From: a phage
DNA length: 44,706 nucleotides
Strand: one strand, 5' to 3'
NCBI GenBank assembly: GCA_021454005.1
Contig: GCA_021454005.1_3939.1
The stretch's first letter is position 1. Every line of letters begins with the position of its first letter. This document shows positions 24,132 to 36,737 of the stretch, piece by piece. The notes under the pieces are model-generated. The model was not told the DNA's origin, made no database searches, and was given only the letters and a program-made list of their open reading frames with translations. Position numbers and translations under genes: made by a program.

Positions 24132-24159
24132 AGTATACTCACCAAATTTTCTATGTCAA
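24132..24159 (-). promoter_or_regulatory. sigma70-like promoter firing into repeat array B
   Basis: On - strand: TTGACA (24154-24159), 16 nt spacer, TATACT (24132-24137), just downstream of ligase stop; overlaps inverted repeat GGTGAGTA/TACTCACC (24104-24141). Confidence 0.35.
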
Positions 24160-31637: not shown

Positions 31638-31838
31638 ATGAAGATGAGAGTAAAAGACAATTTTAAAGTTATTGACCACCGTTTAGTGGAACTCTCATCT
31701 CTTTCCAATGAGGTAATGATTGAACGTCTTAAGAGAGTTGAATCACGAAGGAAAGAGATTGCAGATGAAATTCATGAACTGGACAAGATTGAAAATGGAT
31801 TGAAGGCAGAACTACAACGAAGAGGTGCTAATGTCTAA
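31638..31838 (+). CDS. hypothetical small protein
   Basis: 66 aa charged, helical ORF; position only. Confidence 0.3.
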   Translation: MKMRVKDNFKVIDHRLVELSSLSNEVMIERLKRVESRRKEIADEIHELDKIENGLKAELQRRGANV

Positions 31839-33816
31839 AGGTCGTAAATTGAAAGAGGCTGGTCAGTTTGTTGGTCATTGCGCATGTCCACGTTGTGGCT
31901 CATCAGATGCTGGTTCAATCTATCATCATGACGATGATTCTTATTCAATGACTTGCTTTAGTTGTAACAAAGGTTTCCCAGAGTGGGATTTTGATAAAGG
32001 ACAAATCGTGAGCACTTATTCTACTGGTTCAGACAATAAAAACCGTACTTTCCGTGGAATGGATTTAGACGATGTAAAAGAAAACCTAGAAGCAATGGAC
32101 TTGAAAGATAGGAAGATTCCTGCAAAAGTCCTTGAACGCTTAGGTATCAAGGTTGACATTGACAGTGATGGTGAAATTGACGCGCATTTCTATCCAACTT
32201 ACAAACGTAATGAAGATGGTAAGCTAGAGCACGTTGGCTACCGTGTTCGTCACCGTTACCCAGAAGACCATCCAAAAGAACACCTACGAGGTAAGTTAAA
32301 AGACTTTTCTGGTGGTGTTGGAGACATTAAAGGTGAACTGGCAATGTTCGGTTCATGGATTGCTCCAGAAGGTGGTAACCGTCTATTCATCTGGGAAGGT
32401 GAGATGGAATGTGCGACAGCAATCTATATGACTTCTCTTGCGATTAAGGATAAATCTCGTCGTAAGAATTACTGTCACGTATCTGTTCCATCAGGTGCAA
32501 ACATCAAGTCTATCAAAGATAACTATCAGTACATTACATCATTTGATGAGATTTACTTGTGCTTTGATAACGATGAAGCAGGTGCTAAAGCCACTAAAGA
32601 GGCTGCTGGTATCCTACCTATTGAGAAGGTTCGTTTATTCCAGTATCCAGAAGGCGTAAAAGACCTTAACGAGTGGTGGACAAAGTTCTATAAAGAGAAA
32701 GACACAGTTCTGGAAGGATTTAAGCAGCGTATCTACAATGCACCTCGTTACTGTCCTGCTGGTATCAAGAACTTTGCAGATGGTTTTGAGGCAATGAAGA
32801 ATCGTGGTCAGATTCCATTGATTCCTTTCCCAGAATCTTTCGGAGATTTGAACAGGCTGACTTATGGTGGTTACGGTTTAGGTGAGATTACAACTATTGC
32901 AGCACCATCTTCAGTAGGTAAGTCAGCTTACACTCGTGAGATGATTTATTCAGCTTGGAAAGAAACTGATTATAATATCGGTGTAATTCCTGTAGAAGAT
33001 ACCTATGAAGAGTTGATGGAGATGCTCTGTGCAATCCACCTGAGCAAGCAGATTTCTGAGATTCCTTATGACGAACGTGATTGGGATGAATTGAAGAAGG
33101 CACACGCAGAACTGTCTAAGGGTCGTCGTATCCACATCGTTGACCATCAAGGGGCAATTGACCAAGATAACTTGCTGGAGTTTGTTGACTATCTTGTTAA
33201 CAGCTTAGACTGTAAGATTATTATTCTTGACCCTATTACGTTGGCTCTGTCACGTTCAGATACGGATGAAGAGGAAGTTTTATCTGAGCTATTGCGTCGT
33301 TGCAAACGCTACCAGTATGCACAGGTGAACGTCTGTCACGTTCGTAAGAGTGCAGGTGGTCAGAAGGCTAACTCCGAAGGTGGAGATATCTCTGAAGAGG
33401 ATATTAAAGGTTCTGGTGCGTATTTCCAGATTTCTATGAACAACATTCTATTAATGCGTAACAAGGTTGACTCAGACCCTGTTAAGAAAAACTTGACAAA
33501 AATCAAGTTAACTAAATGCCGTCGTCATGGTAAGTCAACAGGTATTGCTGGTCATACTTGGTACAATCCAGATACAGGACGTCTCATTAAAGCCTCTGGT
33601 TGTGGAGTTGACATTGATGGTGCAGCAGAAAATATTCGCCAACAGTTTGGTATTGGTGAAGCTGAAGACCATTACGATGACTCTTTGCCACATTATGAGG
33701 ATGAAGTGTTTGACCGTGAGACTGGTGAAGTCTATACTGAAGAGCAGCGTCAAAGCTCAACGATTCCACCTGTATTAAGTGAGGATGCAGATGACTGCCC
33801 GTTCGAAACTGAGTGA
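31831..33816 (+). CDS. DNA primase/helicase (T7 gp4-like)
   Basis: N-terminal zinc ribbon CACPRCGSSD...CFSCNKG; Walker A APSSVGKS and Walker B IIILDP in C-terminal half; start at ATG 31831. Confidence 0.8.
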   Translation: MSKGRKLKEAGQFVGHCACPRCGSSDAGSIYHHDDDSYSMTCFSCNKGFPEWDFDKGQIVSTYSTGSDNKNRTFRGMDLDDVKENLEAMDLKDRKIPAKVLERLGIKVDIDSDGEIDAHFYPTYKRNEDGKLEHVGYRVRHRYPEDHPKEHLRGKLKDFSGGVGDIKGELAMFGSWIAPEGGNRLFIWEGEMECATAIYMTSLAIKDKSRRKNYCHVSVPSGANIKSIKDNYQYITSFDEIYLCFDNDEAGAKATKEAAGILPIEKVRLFQYPEGVKDLNEWWTKFYKEKDTVLEGFKQRIYNAPRYCPAGIKNFADGFEAMKNRGQIPLIPFPESFGDLNRLTYGGYGLGEITTIAAPSSVGKSAYTREMIYSAWKETDYNIGVIPVEDTYEELMEMLCAIHLSKQISEIPYDERDWDELKKAHAELSKGRRIHIVDHQGAIDQDNLLEFVDYLVNSLDCKIIILDPITLALSRSDTDEEEVLSELLRRCKRYQYAQVNVCHVRKSAGGQKANSEGGDISEEDIKGSGAYFQISMNNILLMRNKVDSDPVKKNLTKIKLTKCRRHGKSTGIAGHTWYNPDTGRLIKASGCGVDIDGAAENIRQQFGIGEAEDHYDDSLPHYEDEVFDRETGEVYTEEQRQSSTIPPVLSEDADDCPFETE

Positions 33817-33886
33817 TAGCTATAAAAGAGGGGGGTTCACACCCTTATTTGAAGAAAAAAGTTTAAATAAATTTCATGAAGAGTGT

Positions 33887-33915
33887 TTGACAAAGATTGA
33901 TAGGTTCTATAGAAT
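33887..33915 (+). promoter_or_regulatory. sigma70-like promoter TTGACA-17-TAGAAT
   Basis: TTGACA 33887-33892, 17 nt spacer, TAGAAT 33910-33915. Confidence 0.45.
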
Positions 33916-34068
33916 GCTCCACATGAAATGCGATGGAGAAGTTGAAATAGAACAGCAGTTCCATCAAAGCATGATTACAGTCATCATTACACTGCCTCAG
34001 CATAATATTGGTTGGCTGTTTATAATGAAAGAAAATGTGTTTGAATATCAAGTATATCGGAGAATATC

Positions 34069-34218
34069 ATGAAACACTCTAAAGCATTTGAAAAAGTTTT
34101 TGGGGATTCCTTAAAAGCCACTGCTGGAAAACCAGCAAAATACTATGAAGAAAAACGTGTAAGAACTGGAAAAACTGCACGTAAAGCAGCTTCTAAAGAT
34201 AAGCACAACTTCCAGTAA
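34069..34218 (+). CDS. small basic protein (49 aa), absent from ORF track
   Basis: ATG 34069 preceded by GGAGA 8 nt upstream; encodes MKHSKAFEKVFGDSLKATAGKPAKYYEEKRVRTGKTARKAASKDKHNFQ, Lys/Arg-rich. Confidence 0.3.
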   Translation: MKHSKAFEKVFGDSLKATAGKPAKYYEEKRVRTGKTARKAASKDKHNFQ

Positions 34219-34225
34219 TTAGCAT

Positions 34226-34254
34226 TTGACAATAGAGTATCAACAAATTAGAAT
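34226..34254 (+). promoter_or_regulatory. sigma70-like promoter TTGACA-17-TAGAAT
   Basis: TTGACA 34226-34231, 17 nt spacer, TAGAAT 34249-34254; same architecture as 33887. Confidence 0.45.
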
Positions 34255-34290
34255 TGGTACTCTTCATAAATTGAGATAGAGGTTTAAATA

Positions 34291-35148
34291 ATGTCTAAAG
34301 TTGTTAAAATGAAAGCTCCGGTAGAGAAGTACAACGGTACTGAACGTCAAACTCTGCGTTACCTGCTGAAAGATGTCTGGTTTTATTACCTGAACACTTC
34401 ACCGCGTCCGGGAAAAGGTAAGTCTATTGATAAGAAATTCCCAGGCAAGGACTGTAACTACAGCGTATCAATTCTGGCAGAAGACGGTAACAAACTGTTT
34501 AAAGAGTTTACTAAGTCTAAGAAGAACCCAGAAGGTTGGGATAAAGTTACTACTGAAGCAGTTGATGCAGATGACTTCGAAGAGAAGTTTGGCTGCAAAC
34601 CACCTTTTGAAGCAGACACTTACTACATCTTGAAAGTAAGTCGTGCAGCAGCTTATAAAGATGGTGCTGTATGGACAGCTAAACAGTCATTCCCTGTAAT
34701 GCTGATTGAAGAAGTAAACGGTAAACGTGTAGCTGTTAAACAGCCGATGAAGAAAATCAAAGCTCAAGCATCTGATAAGCATGAAGATGATAAGAACTAT
34801 GATGTAATTCATCCAGATATTGCAGTTGGTAACGGTTCTTTTGGTAGTGTGATTCTTTCTACTCACTTCTACACTTTTGAGAACAATGTTCTGACTAAAC
34901 CTATTCAGGAACAGTTTATCATTGATACTCTTGTACCTTACACTGGTGGTAACGGTGCTAATGGTGAACCTGAACTGGATGAAGATGAACTGGCTATGCT
35001 TGGTCTTGATGGTGTCGAAGATAACGGTGAAATCACTGAAGAAGACGCAACAGACCATAAATCTTCGAATGATTCTGATGATGGTGATGATGAAGATTTG
35101 CCAGACCCAGATGACGAAGAGGATGAAGACTTCGATACAGAAGATTAA
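34291..35148 (+). CDS. single-stranded DNA-binding protein (T7 gp2.5-like)
   Basis: Highly acidic C-terminal tail ending DEEDEDFDTED with aromatic residue near the end; sits with primase-helicase and exonuclease. Confidence 0.45.
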   Translation: MSKVVKMKAPVEKYNGTERQTLRYLLKDVWFYYLNTSPRPGKGKSIDKKFPGKDCNYSVSILAEDGNKLFKEFTKSKKNPEGWDKVTTEAVDADDFEEKFGCKPPFEADTYYILKVSRAAAYKDGAVWTAKQSFPVMLIEEVNGKRVAVKQPMKKIKAQASDKHEDDKNYDVIHPDIAVGNGSFGSVILSTHFYTFENNVLTKPIQEQFIIDTLVPYTGGNGANGEPELDEDELAMLGLDGVEDNGEITEEDATDHKSSNDSDDGDDEDLPDPDDEEDEDFDTED

Positions 35149-35165
35149 TCTCTAAAGTTACTTTA

Positions 35166-35193
35166 AAGCCCTGTACTCCGTATGGGGCTTTTT
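35166..35193 (+). terminator. rho-independent terminator
   Basis: AAGCCC...GGGCTT hairpin followed by TTTTT. Confidence 0.45.
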
Positions 35194-35209
35194 CATATGG
35201 AGAGCCATA

Positions 35210-36250
35210 ATGGAGAAGTACACATTAACAAAACTTCCCGATTCAGTTACACATGTTTTTATTGACTCTGACAGTATTGCCTATAAAGGTGCTTGTGTAG
35301 TTGAGAAATCAAAATATAAATACGTCAATAAACTCACAGCAGAAGAATCTGAGCCATTTGATAATGCGAAAGATGCTGCAAGATGGTTAGCAGACCAGAG
35401 AATCCTTGTGGAAGAACTTGGCCTGACATTTGATGAAGATGAATGGGAAAGACAAACTTGGAAAGAAGCTAAGAGTGAAAAAGAAGCTATCATGGCTACT
35501 CAACAGGTGCTTCAGGAATGGCTTAAGATTGTTGGTAAAGAAAGAACTTGGGTAGGCTATTTAACAGAGAAAGGTGTGCATAAACATAAAGACATTAAAG
35601 GTCTTGAGCACCAATATCAAGGGAACCGTAAAGATGCTGTCACACCAACACACTTAGTTGCTTGTCGTGAGTATCTTCTGTCAAGACCAGAGTTCAAACT
35701 CTTAAAGGGAGGATTCGAAGCCGATTCAATCGTAATTGCTAAAGCTGAAAAGATGGGTAAGAAAGCTGCTCTTATGAGTATTGACAAAGACCTTCGACAA
35801 GCTGAAGGAACTTATTGTATTGATATGACTTATGAAAAATCACCACTAATTTTTATTGCTGATAATAATGTTGGTGATATCTGGGATTGTCCTATCAAAT
35901 CAAAACCAAAAGCTGCAAAAACAGTTGGTGTAGGTTTTAAATTCTTGTGTTATCAGGCTGTTGCTGGAGATAATGCAGACAACTACTTCGGCCTAAAAGG
36001 GGCTGGTAAAGTAGCTGTGATGAATGCTTTAGATGGTAAAGAGACCTACAAAGAGTGTCTTGATGCTATCTATGAACTCTATGCTAAAAAAGACTCTTAT
36101 ACCTATGTGTCATGGGATGGACAGACTGTTACAAAGACACCGTTAGAGTTAATGGAACAGCATTTCTGGATAGCATATCAAGAGAGAAATCCAAAAGACA
36201 ATTTCTCTTTCAAGAAATATAATTGGGAGCCGTGTATGAATGAAGATTAA
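35210..36250 (+). CDS. 5'-3' exonuclease (T7 gp6-like)
   Basis: VTHVFIDSDSIAYKGA, SIDKDL and QAVAGDNADNYFGLKGAG match recalled T7 gp6 segments. Confidence 0.75.
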   Translation: MEKYTLTKLPDSVTHVFIDSDSIAYKGACVVEKSKYKYVNKLTAEESEPFDNAKDAARWLADQRILVEELGLTFDEDEWERQTWKEAKSEKEAIMATQQVLQEWLKIVGKERTWVGYLTEKGVHKHKDIKGLEHQYQGNRKDAVTPTHLVACREYLLSRPEFKLLKGGFEADSIVIAKAEKMGKKAALMSIDKDLRQAEGTYCIDMTYEKSPLIFIADNNVGDIWDCPIKSKPKAAKTVGVGFKFLCYQAVAGDNADNYFGLKGAGKVAVMNALDGKETYKECLDAIYELYAKKDSYTYVSWDGQTVTKTPLELMEQHFWIAYQERNPKDNFSFKKYNWEPCMNED

Positions 36251-36737
36251 AGGATTTGGCAATTGCCCTACCTACGGTCATTGGGTATCTTTATGTGGGG
36301 AAGTTGACCCCACTAAACATTTTGGCTTTGTCTATTTAGTACACTGTAAGAAGACTGGACAATATTATATAGGAAAGAAACAGCTTAACAGTGTGACCAA
36401 AAGAAAAGTTGCTGGGAAGACTCGGAAGAAGGTAGTCACTAAGGAAAGTGATTGGATGACTTACGAAACCTCTTCTGAGTATATTAAAAAAGATATTGAG
36501 AGTTTTGGAAAAGAATTTTTTGACTTTTACATTATTCAGACCTATTACACAAAAGGTGGCCTAGTCTATGGTGAAGCAAACCTTCAACATAAATTCGATG
36601 TAATGACAAAAAGGATTGACTCTAAGCTCAGACTCTTCTACAATGCCAATATTGCAGCAATTAAGTTTATCACTAAAGAAACTTATGAAGATGCTGAAAA
36701 AAGAATCCATAAGGTAATGAAAGCAAATTGTGCTTGA
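36240..36737 (+). CDS. GIY-YIG family endonuclease (homing endonuclease-like)
   Basis: GFVYLVHCKKTGQYYIGKK shows GIY...YIG spacing with downstream R/E residues; overlaps exonuclease stop by 11 nt. Confidence 0.55.
   Translation: MKIKGFGNCPTYGHWVSLCGEVDPTKHFGFVYLVHCKKTGQYYIGKKQLNSVTKRKVAGKTRKKVVTKESDWMTYETSSEYIKKDIESFGKEFFDFYIIQTYYTKGGLVYGEANLQHKFDVMTKRIDSKLRLFYNANIAAIKFITKETYEDAEKRIHKVMKANCA

Follow-up and report, generated by a model that had tools for sequence, protein, structure and literature searches.

The window analysed here, a 44,706-nt stretch of DNA, is a Felixounavirus genome that is 99.4% identical to LF110P1 and has 289 related phage records. We focus on the primase/helicase-to-SSB junction of this Felix O1-like phage, where two host-type promoter sites and two small conserved genes lie between the primase/helicase gene and a gene for a T7 gp2.5-like SSB. 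The locus is an ordinary one and already known, its sequence, both small ORFs and the promoter P2 being present in public records. Its features are as follows:

31825..33816, + strand: T7 gp4-like DNA primase/helicase gene (Pfam Toprim_2 and DnaB_C; annotation of GenBank relatives)
33710..33738, + strand: candidate promoter P102, TTGACC-17-TATACT (promoter scan)
33791..34072, + strand: ORF-A from its ATG, 93 aa, Felix O1 p246, PHROG 4982 (annotated CDS in relatives)
33887..33915, + strand: P1, sigma-70-type promoter-like site, TTGACA-17-TAGAAT, within ORF-A codons 33-42
34059..34063, + strand: ORF-B Shine-Dalgarno GGAGA, 5 nt ahead of the ATG
34069..34218, + strand: ORF-B, 49 aa, Felix O1 p245, PHROG 4424
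34226..34254, + strand: P2, sigma-70-type promoter, TTGACA-17-TAGAAT, 36 nt upstream of the SSB ATG (scan)
34234..34263, + strand: conserved hairpin, AGAGTATCAA / TTGGTACTCT (MFE -9.6 kcal/mol, z -3.8)
34278..34282, + strand: SSB Shine-Dalgarno AGAGG, 8 nt ahead of the ATG (RBS in the phage Meda annotation)
34291..35148, + strand: divergent T7 gp2.5-like SSB, 285 aa, PHROG 3877 (remote homology)
35165..35193, + strand: intrinsic terminator, Felix O1 t104 (hairpin of -15.2 kcal/mol, z -3.3, then UUUUU)

Felix O1-like phages have no RNA polymerase of their own and are transcribed by the host sigma-70 enzyme, and RT-PCR in Felix O1 detected early transcription of ORFs 96, 101 and 105, near these genes (PMC3185647). 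Searching the literature on Felix O1-type phages for transcription start sites, RNA-seq, transcriptomes and promoter assays retrieved none, so that the activity of P1 and P2 is deduced here from sequence. The P102 candidate, which lies ahead of ORF-A within the 3'-terminal part of the primase gene, corresponds to the promoter predicted in Felix O1 at 67839-67867 (PMC3185647), and Suspvirus keeps it as TTGACC-17-TACACT. Downstream, t104 closes the P2-SSB transcription unit; it is listed as a terminator in Felix O1 (PMC3185647), and the phage Meda record annotates a terminator at the same site. A replication origin at the tandem promoters, by analogy with the primary origin of T7, was considered and rejected: the GC skew tracks the direction of transcription, with turns at ~18.7 kb and ~29.4 kb, and has no feature at 34 kb.

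The ORF-A/ORF-B cassette

The ORF track lists ORF-A as 33779..34072, with the annotated start at ATG 33791. It has a Shine-Dalgarno of its own (GAGGA), shares 26 nt with the primase gene, and meets ORF-B in the overlapping stop-start sequence ATGA. ORF-B itself was "unlisted" only because the ORF track stops at 60 aa; it is a CDS in every annotated Felix O1-type record that we examined, most deposited relatives examined calling it a hypothetical protein, and in a few related records one of the small ORFs seems to be left out. Its Shine-Dalgarno is made from the conserved ORF-A Arg-Arg codons CGG AGA, and TATCGGAGA is invariant over three genera whose overall nucleotide identity is ~70%. The ATGA overlap and the placing of the Shine-Dalgarno in the Arg-Arg codons mark ORF-A and ORF-B as a translationally coupled cassette. 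ORF-B and ORF-A are full-length members of PHROG 4424 and PHROG 4982 (E 7e-36 and 6e-49, respectively) and show no difference from these families.

The first-pass annotation had described a basic 49-aa ORF with a good ribosome-binding site and P1 upstream of it, which agrees with what we find (GGAGA; pI 10.2, charge +8.7), and had proposed conservation of the reading frame in relatives as a check. This check revealed strong purifying selection: dN/dS between genera is 0.08-0.13, with 22/35 differences at third codon positions, and among 22 unique Felixounavirus sequences 7/49 third positions vary as compared to 1/98 first and second positions. The frame is retained down to 57% identity, and the protein is at least 99% identical in 171 phage records from Escherichia, Salmonella and Shigella phages. 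This pattern of substitution identifies ORF-B as a real gene under very strong purifying selection. The family comprises 42 clusters, mostly of 44-50 aa, the large carrier contigs being phage-sized (70-92 kb), and a broader profile search found homologues only in Felix O1-type (Ounavirinae) phages, with no informative new context. AlphaFold2 modelled three short helices (pLDDT 69), so the product is probably helical as modelled. A profile search of ORF-B against the PDB returned only a non-significant match to eL39 (E 0.46), a Foldseek search of the model against the PDB gave no match, and PADLOC and NCBIfam gave nothing, leaving ORF-B with no homologue of known function in these searches.

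Two alternative views of the cassette have to be weighed. The first-pass annotation had noted that ORF 33779..34072 overlaps P1, as it does, and had taken it as probably not coding. Under that reading ORF-A would be no gene at all: a long untranslated leader would contain P1, and the 49-aa ORF alone would be translated. The rapid evolution of ORF-A (39-41% amino-acid identity between genera, dN/dS 0.36-0.74) could be seen in this light, as could the lack of any Pfam, NCBIfam or PDB relative and the "Not Fit" score of its SUSP1 orthologue in a knock-down screen (PMC11879866). However, the annotated frame of ORF-A is free of stops in nine lineages, with identities as low as 17%, as compared to 2-18 stops in every other frame; the sequences remain alignable across these nine lineages, with indels in frame, conserved N- and C-terminal motifs and a conserved hydrophobic pattern; and the PHROG 4982 match, the GAGGA and the ATGA overlap with ORF-B also argue for translation. 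These properties point to ORF-A being a real, fast-evolving protein gene, and we consider a non-coding ORF-A highly improbable.

A different possibility is that ORF-A and ORF-B, as a cassette, serve in host takeover or anti-defence instead of assisting replication, in which case the fast evolution of ORF-A would reflect an arms race and the target of ORF-B would be a highly conserved host component. The elevated dN/dS of ORF-A fits this idea, as does its resemblance to AcrIIA4, the only one to emerge and a weak, non-significant one (E 0.28), and so does the conservation of ORF-B over phages of three host genera. Most of the Ounavirinae lineages that we sampled carry the cassette but some do not, and three of the sampled lineages have the same replisome genes with neither ORF-B nor the cassette. 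It also appears dispensable in the laboratory, since both cassette orthologues of SUSP1, agp052 and agp053, are "Not Fit" in the knock-down (PMC11879866; for ORF-B, supplementary file 16); the same screen also missed the primase/helicase (PMC11879866). Against the anti-defence idea, none of the defence or anti-defence families gave a significant match, and the position between replisome genes and the early expression of the neighbourhood suit either reading. We regard an anti-defence role as possible, but on the unlikely side. Most likely, ORF-B would encode a small helical protein of basic character with an accessory role, its target being either nucleic acid or the acidic tails (F-x-T-E) of replisome proteins (see below); plaque formation in the laboratory would not require it.

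A divergent gp2.5-like SSB

The gene downstream of P2 had been labelled SSB in the first-pass annotation, and remote homology upholds this label. An exhaustive profile search recovered 65 relatives of the 285-aa protein, and a profile built from the family and its remote relatives matches T7 gp2.5 (PDB 1JE5) at E 1.8e-7. A two-step hhalign chain leads to the same protein, with a probability of 99.94% between the family and the remote-only set and of 94.8% between the remote set and T7 gp2.5; when the close family was aligned to T7 gp2.5 alone, the value was 25%. PHROG 112, "Gp2.5-like ssDNA binding protein", is matched by 31/46 relatives, and the Pfam family SBB_T7 by 5. The window protein itself does not directly match a curated gp2.5 family model: it hits no Pfam family at E 0.1 or below, nothing in NCBIfam and only PHROG 3877 in the PHROGs, and PDB searches with the single sequence and with the close family found nothing. 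Its AlphaFold2 model (mean pLDDT 41, from an 11-sequence alignment) is mostly beta and unusable for a fold search. The assignment of the protein as a T7 gp2.5-like SSB is thus a transitive one, made through its remote relatives.

The profile homology to T7 gp2.5 (PDB 1JE5, PF21265 SBB_T7, PHROG 112) extends over an IGNGS.G.V motif, which reads IIGGGSKLKV in T7. Both proteins also end in an acidic tail in which an aromatic residue is critical; in the window protein the tail ends in ...DEDFDTED (...DPDDEEDEDFDTED, with an invariant Phe). This tail motif covaries with that of the primase/helicase, whose own acidic tail ends in ...DDCPFETE, and the T7 helicase-primase likewise carries a matching tail. 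The genomic setting is also similar in kind, the window SSB gene neighbouring genes for the gp4-like primase/helicase and a 5'-3' exonuclease. The two proteins differ in size (285 aa as compared to 232 aa for T7 gp2.5) and in the position of the Phe, which is terminal in T7 gp2.5 and four residues from the end in the window SSB (F-x-T-E). Unlike T7 gp2.5, the window SSB belongs to a separate PHROG (3877) and has no direct Pfam or PDB match.

In all 60 Ounavirinae records sampled, the SSB homologues are labelled hypothetical. The SUSP1 orthologue, agp054, was scored "Fit" in the knock-down screen and behaves much like an essential gene, its depletion reducing the efficiency of plating by ~4 logs (PMC11879866).

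The promoter sites P1 and P2 and the hairpin at P2

TTGACA, exactly 17 nt and TAGAAT had been reported at 33887-33915 and 34226-34254, and both sites are present on the + strand exactly as claimed. Each of them matches the sigma-70 hexamers in 11/12 positions and has a spacer of exactly 17 nt, within the 17 +/- 1 nt range of sigma-70 promoters. Two exact copies of the pattern are found in the window, where 0.02 would be expected, and 0/100 shuffles reach that number; when one mismatch is allowed this excess is gone (2 found versus 0.64 expected, with 16/100 shuffles reaching two). A third 11/12 site in the window, TTGACA-16-TATACT, lies at 24159 on the - strand. P1 and P2 are not duplicates of each other, since their spacers and flanks have no sequence in common.

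The two sites resemble the E. coli sigma-70 promoters of phages that lack an RNA polymerase, sharing the TTGACA, the 17-nt spacer, the TAnnnT -10 and the 11/12 match; our comparison set comprised the predicted Felix O1 promoters P11, P41, P45, P102 and P117 and the wV8 and AYO145A annotations. P2 is also like these promoters in being intergenic and ahead of a Shine-Dalgarno and gene, whereas P1 differs by being embedded in a coding ORF. The Felix O1 paper lists neither P1 nor P2 (PMC3185647); KR014248 already annotates P2 as a promoter.

P2 had been placed ahead of the SSB gene, and we see both this order and its conservation across lineages. The spacing is 17 nt in 9/9 lineages, and the -35 box reads TTGACA in seven of them and TTGCAA or TTGACT in two. 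The -35 and the spacing are retained in Mooglevirus, Suspvirus, Wc4-1-like and Ea21-4-like phages and three metagenomic lineages, remaining constant while the flanks diverge, a pattern that identifies P2 as a conserved intergenic promoter. P2 and the terminator t104 frame a monocistronic unit for the divergent SSB.

For P1, the claim of a functional promoter is plausible, as key bases are kept across lineages through amino-acid changes. An A/T-rich stretch lies upstream, and both hexamers are invariant among the 22 unique Felixounavirus sequences. The site could nevertheless lack promoter activity and owe its match to chance or to the protein, in which case TTGACA would result from Leu-Thr codons and TAGAAT would be a lineage-specific accident. 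P1 lies wholly within a coding ORF, and its -35 consists of the codons for the conserved Leu-Thr of an ECLTK motif; beyond Felixounavirus the match drops to 9/12, and no site can be detected in Wc4-1, L012 and L013; promoter-like sites in the window are not commoner than in shuffles (39 versus 42.5, and 59 versus 51.3); and the Felix O1 paper (PMC3185647) and the AYO145A record annotate promoters in intergenic DNA only. On the other side, third-codon positions are invariant within the 29-mer, where 0/9 vary among the 22 sequences as compared to 30/92 (33%) across ORF-A, although this test is small (roughly p 0.03). At least six lineages have a homologous site of the form TTGACN or TTGCAA-17-TAnAnT despite amino-acid changes, the T-A-n-A-n-T of the -10 surviving Y/G/C/A/R, R/K/I and M/V/L replacements, with ATA and AGA codons in use. 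In the L014 lineage, Leu-Thr has become Leu-Gln and yet the site reads TTGCAA-17-TATAGT. P1 thus shows conservation beyond that of the coding sequence, with weaker support than for P2, and is probably a real internal promoter; we give the chance explanation a substantial but minor share of the probability.

P2 differs from the other promoters in that it overlaps a conserved hairpin, which is unique to it among the 21 promoter-like sites in the window and missing at the 20 others. Its left arm is part of the P2 spacer, most of the -10 occupies the loop, and the predicted start site is covered by the right arm. Hairpins with covarying stems occur in nine lineages (z -1.9 to -5.1), their arm positions and spacing shifting by 1-5 nt between lineages; because of these shifts, gapless RNAalifold over the P2 region catches the hairpin only partly, and per-lineage folds were used instead. 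The 10-bp stem is followed by UCAUAAAUU and has no proper U-tract; the element does not fit the intrinsic-terminator pattern of a stable G+C-rich stem-loop with an immediate U-tract, and a terminator scan made no call. Since a proper U-tract is missing here, and Ea21-4-like relatives have UCUUUU after the hairpin, it may be at most a weak or leaky terminator. An Rfam search of 33600-35300 gave only sub-threshold, chance-level matches (S15 leader, 17.5 bits versus a cut-off of 39.5, E 0.38).

The inverted repeat could instead act at the level of double-stranded DNA, as an operator at which a dimeric repressor from the phage or the host would shut off or autoregulate the SSB promoter. Its straddling of the -10, a classical position for a repressor operator, would agree with this, together with its specificity for the SSB promoter among the 21 sites and its conservation in nine lineages. 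The arm sequences, however, covary rather than being conserved, and they move relative to each other; moreover, mismatches are consistently G.U in the sense strand, so that in 13/13 variants the + strand folds more stably than the - strand, a pattern that suits an RNA element but would not be expected of a DNA-binding site. A DNA operator at P2 is therefore quite improbable in our judgment, and we treat the repeat as an RNA hairpin.

A proposed scheme of transcription and its meaning

In the scheme that we propose, P1 would act as a second working promoter inside ORF-A. From a start near 33922, its transcripts would run through a ~147-nt leader into ORF-B and on towards the SSB gene. The hairpin that overlaps the P2 -10 would be part of these long transcripts and of any that read through from the primase gene, while transcripts from P2 would begin inside the right arm and thus lack it. 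The RNA hairpin would then most likely serve as a leaky attenuator, or as a 3'-end element keeping the SSB unit insulated from the message upstream. The account as a whole, combining host promoters, the ORF-A/ORF-B cassette, the gp2.5-like SSB unit, the hairpin and an accessory role for ORF-B, is in our view a likely one.

A more elaborate function for the hairpin is conceivable. In T4 gene 32, SSB autoregulation works through an operator in which a structured 5' element precedes an unstructured ribosome-binding region rich in A/U. The P2 hairpin likewise lies upstream of an SSB start (by 28-57 nt) and is followed by an A/U-rich ribosome-binding stretch, and in both cases more than one promoter serves the gene. 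The hairpin, which buries the P2 -10, might constitute an SSB-specific regulatory switch with two classes of SSB mRNA, the long P1 or primase-operon transcripts carrying it beside the A/U-rich ribosome-binding site and the short P2 transcripts lacking it, and with autoregulation by SSB or ORF-B. The comparison with T4 is an analogy only; gene 32 has a pseudoknot, whereas the P2 element is a simple hairpin missing from P2-started transcripts. Such a switch strikes us as decidedly improbable. If true, it would be the gp2.5-family counterpart of the T4 gene 32 operator.

ORF-B is extremely conserved and has no relatives of known function, and is therefore a clean candidate for the study of small-protein function. 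For the timing of transcription in Felix O1-type phages, the two conserved host-type promoter sites and the SSB-specific hairpin provide concrete elements that can be tested. Finally, SUSP1 agp054, which the genome-wide knock-down flagged as essential but "completely hypothetical" (PMC11879866), can now be named, by remote homology, as a gp2.5-like SSB.

Gene layout and the two small ORFs

Over 33500-35200 the sequence shares 99.4% identity with Felixounavirus LF110P1 and matches 289 phage records, the majority of them Escherichia and Salmonella Felix O1-like myoviruses. This Felix O1-type region also occurs, at 96-98% identity, in two records named for phages of other hosts, Campylobacter phage A126 (MG065668.1) and Staphylococcus phage SA1 (GU169904.1), which are probably contaminated or chimeric assemblies. 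The two promoter-like sites considered here (P1 and P2), the small ORFs and the gene for an SSB (a protein that binds single-stranded DNA) are, as judged from sequence comparison, functional elements and not chance occurrences (in the case of P1, probably so). The finding is an ordinary one, and largely present in public annotation already.

Features of the region
31825-33816: T7 gp4-like primase/helicase (Toprim and DnaB_C)
33791 (ATG)-34072: ORF-A, 93 aa, PHROG 4982 (p246 in Felix O1)
33887-33915, + strand: P1, TTGACA-17 nt-TAGAAT
34069-34218: ORF-B, 49 aa, PHROG 4424 (p245 in Felix O1)
34226-34254, + strand: P2, TTGACA-17 nt-TAGAAT
34291-35148: 285-aa ORF (SSB), PHROG 3877
35165-35193: intrinsic terminator, Felix O1 t104 (-15.2 kcal/mol, then UUUUU)
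35210-36250: 5'-3' exonuclease

Some relatives list the gene following the exonuclease (36240-36737) as an HNH or homing endonuclease, and its counterpart in related loci has a SegE-type GIY-YIG match; it may be a mobile endonuclease within the replication module.

The first-pass annotation regarded the ORF overlapping P1 as probably non-coding. This is contradicted by its frame, which contains no stop in nine lineages (each of the five other frames has 2-18), by its match to PHROG 4982 (E 6e-49), and by proteins alignable down to 17% identity, in which the motifs at both termini are conserved and the indels are in frame. ORF-A, with its own GAGGA Shine-Dalgarno, a 26-nt overlap with the primase gene and coupling to ORF-B, is by these marks a protein-coding gene, although a fast-evolving one (dN/dS 0.36-0.74). 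Its orthologue in phage SUSP1, agp052, had a strongly negative gene fitness (-2.83, p 0.98, "Not Fit") in a CRISPRi-ART screen, a direction opposite to that of essential genes.

ORF-B, by contrast, had been proposed as a gene from the outset, and was missing from the ORF track solely due to the 60-aa cut-off. It encodes a basic protein (pI 10.2, charge +8.7) and is preceded at five nt by a GGAGA Shine-Dalgarno, supplied by the conserved Arg-Arg codons CGG AGA of ORF-A; the ORF-A stop and ORF-B start share an ATGA, and both ATGA and Shine-Dalgarno are invariant across three genera. The frame is kept in relatives, with dN/dS of 0.08-0.13 between genera. Protein identity is at least 99% across 171 phage records that diverge by as much as ~7% in their DNA; 22 of the 35 differences between the window's ORF-B and that of Moogle fall at third codon positions, and among 22 unique Felixounavirus sequences variation affects 7/49 third positions as compared to 1/98 first and second positions. 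The family comprises 42 clusters, mostly of 44-50 aa, whose named members belong only to Felix O1-type phages of Escherichia, Pectobacterium and Yersinia, and the large contigs carrying members are phage-sized (70-92 kb).

Both small ORFs are hypothetical proteins in every annotated Felix O1-type record that we examined, and among the hits a few records seem to lack an entry for one of them. Hafnia-phage-like and Ea21-4-like lineages lack the cassette, their primase stop leading straight to the promoter and SSB gene, while the metagenomic lineage L014 has ORF-A only, with a P1-like site still within it (loci L011, L045, L046, L047 and L014). Phage SUSP1 corresponds to locus L006, and knock-down of its ORF-B orthologue, agp053, had no effect ("Not Fit", with a fitness of -0.06, p 0.59; PMC11879866 supplementary file 16); this screen has false negatives, since the primase/helicase was likewise "Not Fit" (PMC11879866). 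Strong constraint, the null knock-down and absence from some lineages together mark ORF-B as a real, conserved accessory gene. No significant match was found in PDB, Foldseek, Pfam, NCBIfam or PADLOC, and the AF2 model has three short helices (pLDDT 69); a role as a nucleic-acid-binding accessory factor is a reasonable, if speculative, suggestion.

Two promoter-like sites of unequal standing

The Felix O1 genome has no RNA polymerase gene of its own, and host-type promoters were predicted for it in intergenic DNA only (PMC3185647). Both TTGACA-17-TAGAAT sites were found as initially described. The exact pattern occurs twice in the window against 0.02 expected, a count reached in 0/100 shuffles; with one mismatch permitted no excess was left, and the window was not richer than shuffles in promoter-like sites as a class. 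The "identical architecture" ascribed to the pair covers hexamers and spacing only, since the spacers are unrelated in sequence. A third, 11/12 site (TTGACA-16-TATACT; 24132-24159, - strand) lies between two - strand genes.

P2, as the first-pass annotation had it, precedes the SSB gene, and already carries a promoter annotation in KR014248. We compared nine lineages (Felixounavirus, Mooglevirus, Suspvirus, Wc4-1-like, Ea21-4-like and three metagenomic lineages among them), and the spacing is exactly 17 nt in all nine, with a -35 of TTGACA in seven and TTGCAA or TTGACT in two, and a -10 of TAGAAT, TAAGAT, TAACAT or TAATAT. The counterpart is degenerate in locus L015 and reaches only 9/12, without a hairpin, in the Hafnia-phage-like L045. 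On sequence grounds P2 is a genuine conserved promoter, which, with an AGAGG Shine-Dalgarno, the 285-aa gene and the strong t104 terminator at its end, would form a compact promoter-gene-terminator unit.

P1 spans ORF-A codons 33-42, its -35 encoding Leu-Thr of a conserved ECLTK motif. Both hexamers are invariant among the 22 unique Felixounavirus sequences, where 0/9 third-codon positions vary inside the 29-mer versus 30/92 across ORF-A (roughly p 0.03). A homologous site (TTGACN or TTGCAA, 17 nt, TAnAnT) occurs in at least six other lineages; the encoded residues differ between them (Y/G/C/A/R, R/K/I, M/V/L), and the codons include ATA and AGA, which are rare in E. coli. Retention of TAnAnT through these changes points to selection on T-12, A-11 and T-7. 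Outside Felixounavirus, however, the site reaches only 9/12, and none was found in Wc4-1, L012 or L013; the earlier reading of P1 as a promoter is thus plausible, and we lean towards its being active. An A/T-rich run, AAAAAAGTTTAAATAAATTT (33853-33873), occupies the UP-element position 14-34 nt upstream of the -35, and is nearly invariant within Felixounavirus though coding. The -10 falls in a perfect 10-bp palindrome, TTCTATAGAA (33905-33914), which is probably due to chance because folding yielded no stable hairpin there (z +1.5). The counterpart of Felix O1 "P102" (33710-33738, TTGACC-17-TATACT) is a further candidate promoter upstream of ORF-A.

A conserved hairpin overlapping P2

P2 overlaps a hairpin (-9.6 kcal/mol) with arms AGAGUAUCAA (34234-34243) and UUGGUACUCU (34254-34263); the left arm lies in the spacer, the loop holds most of the -10, and the expected start site is covered by the right arm. 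Hairpins with different, covarying stems (-9.6 to -14.7 kcal/mol, z -1.9 to -5.1) occupy the same place in nine lineages (seen in the window and at loci L005, L006, L010-L014, L042, L043, L046 and L047), including Ea21-4-like phages, even though in these the SSB gene comes immediately after the primase gene. Among the 21 promoter-like sites of the window, P2 alone has such a structure (z -4.7; next best -1.3).

An inverted repeat at a promoter could represent a double-stranded DNA operator. The arms move by a few nt between lineages, and in 13/13 variants the sense-strand RNA fold is stabler than the antisense fold, since every non-Watson-Crick pair is G.U; this favours an RNA element over an operator. 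P2 transcripts would start inside the right arm and lack the full hairpin, which would be confined to RNA reading through from P1, P102 or the primase operon. The window hairpin has no proper U-tract and was not called by the terminator scan; in some relatives UCUUUU follows the stem. Our favoured reading is that of a leaky attenuator or 3'-end element, by which the SSB unit would be insulated from the message upstream. A leader with autoregulatory function, like that of T4 gene 32, would be more interesting if true, but seems improbable. In Rfam the ribosomal S15 leader matched below threshold (34233-34344; 17.5 bits vs a 39.5 cut-off, E 0.38); this match, spanning the hairpin, ribosome-binding site and SSB gene start, is at chance level.

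The 285-aa protein as a gp2.5-like SSB

The window protein alone had no match in Pfam or PDB, and its AF2 model was unusable (pLDDT 41). An exhaustive profile search retrieved 65 relatives, most of 200-240 aa. All 46 relatives examined matched PHROG 3877 and 31 matched PHROG 112 ([quoted passage not shown]), with Pfam SBB_T7 in five and Enc34_ssDNA-bd in two; the joint profile matched T7 gp2.5 (PDB 1JE5, E 1.8e-7), which bears out the original SSB label. As a guard against profile drift, hhalign was run between the close family and a remote-only set (99.94%, E 1.8e-36), and between that set and T7 gp2.5 (94.8%, E 5e-8). Remote homology hence supports a divergent T7 gp2.5-like SSB.

The acidic C-terminal tail of the SSB (35107-35148) has an invariant Phe (F-x-T-E), and shares an acidic [P/G]-F-x-T-E motif with the primase/helicase tail (33775-33816). 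The two covary across lineages (CPFETE/APFETE, GFQTE/GFQTE, IPFRTE/VPFKTE; window, L010-L015, L046 and L047), mirroring T7, in which gp4 and gp2.5 have matching acidic, Phe-containing tails. The likeness suggests a common docking partner, as for gp4 and gp2.5 of T7.

The gene is hypothetical in 60/60 sampled records. Its SUSP1 orthologue, agp054, called "completely hypothetical" in the knock-down screen, was "Fit" (2.82, p 3e-7), with an efficiency of plating (EOP) ~4 logs lower (PMC11879866). The value added here is thus that an essential "hypothetical" gene can now be named as a gp2.5-like SSB and, beside this naming, that a conserved hairpin is specific to its promoter.
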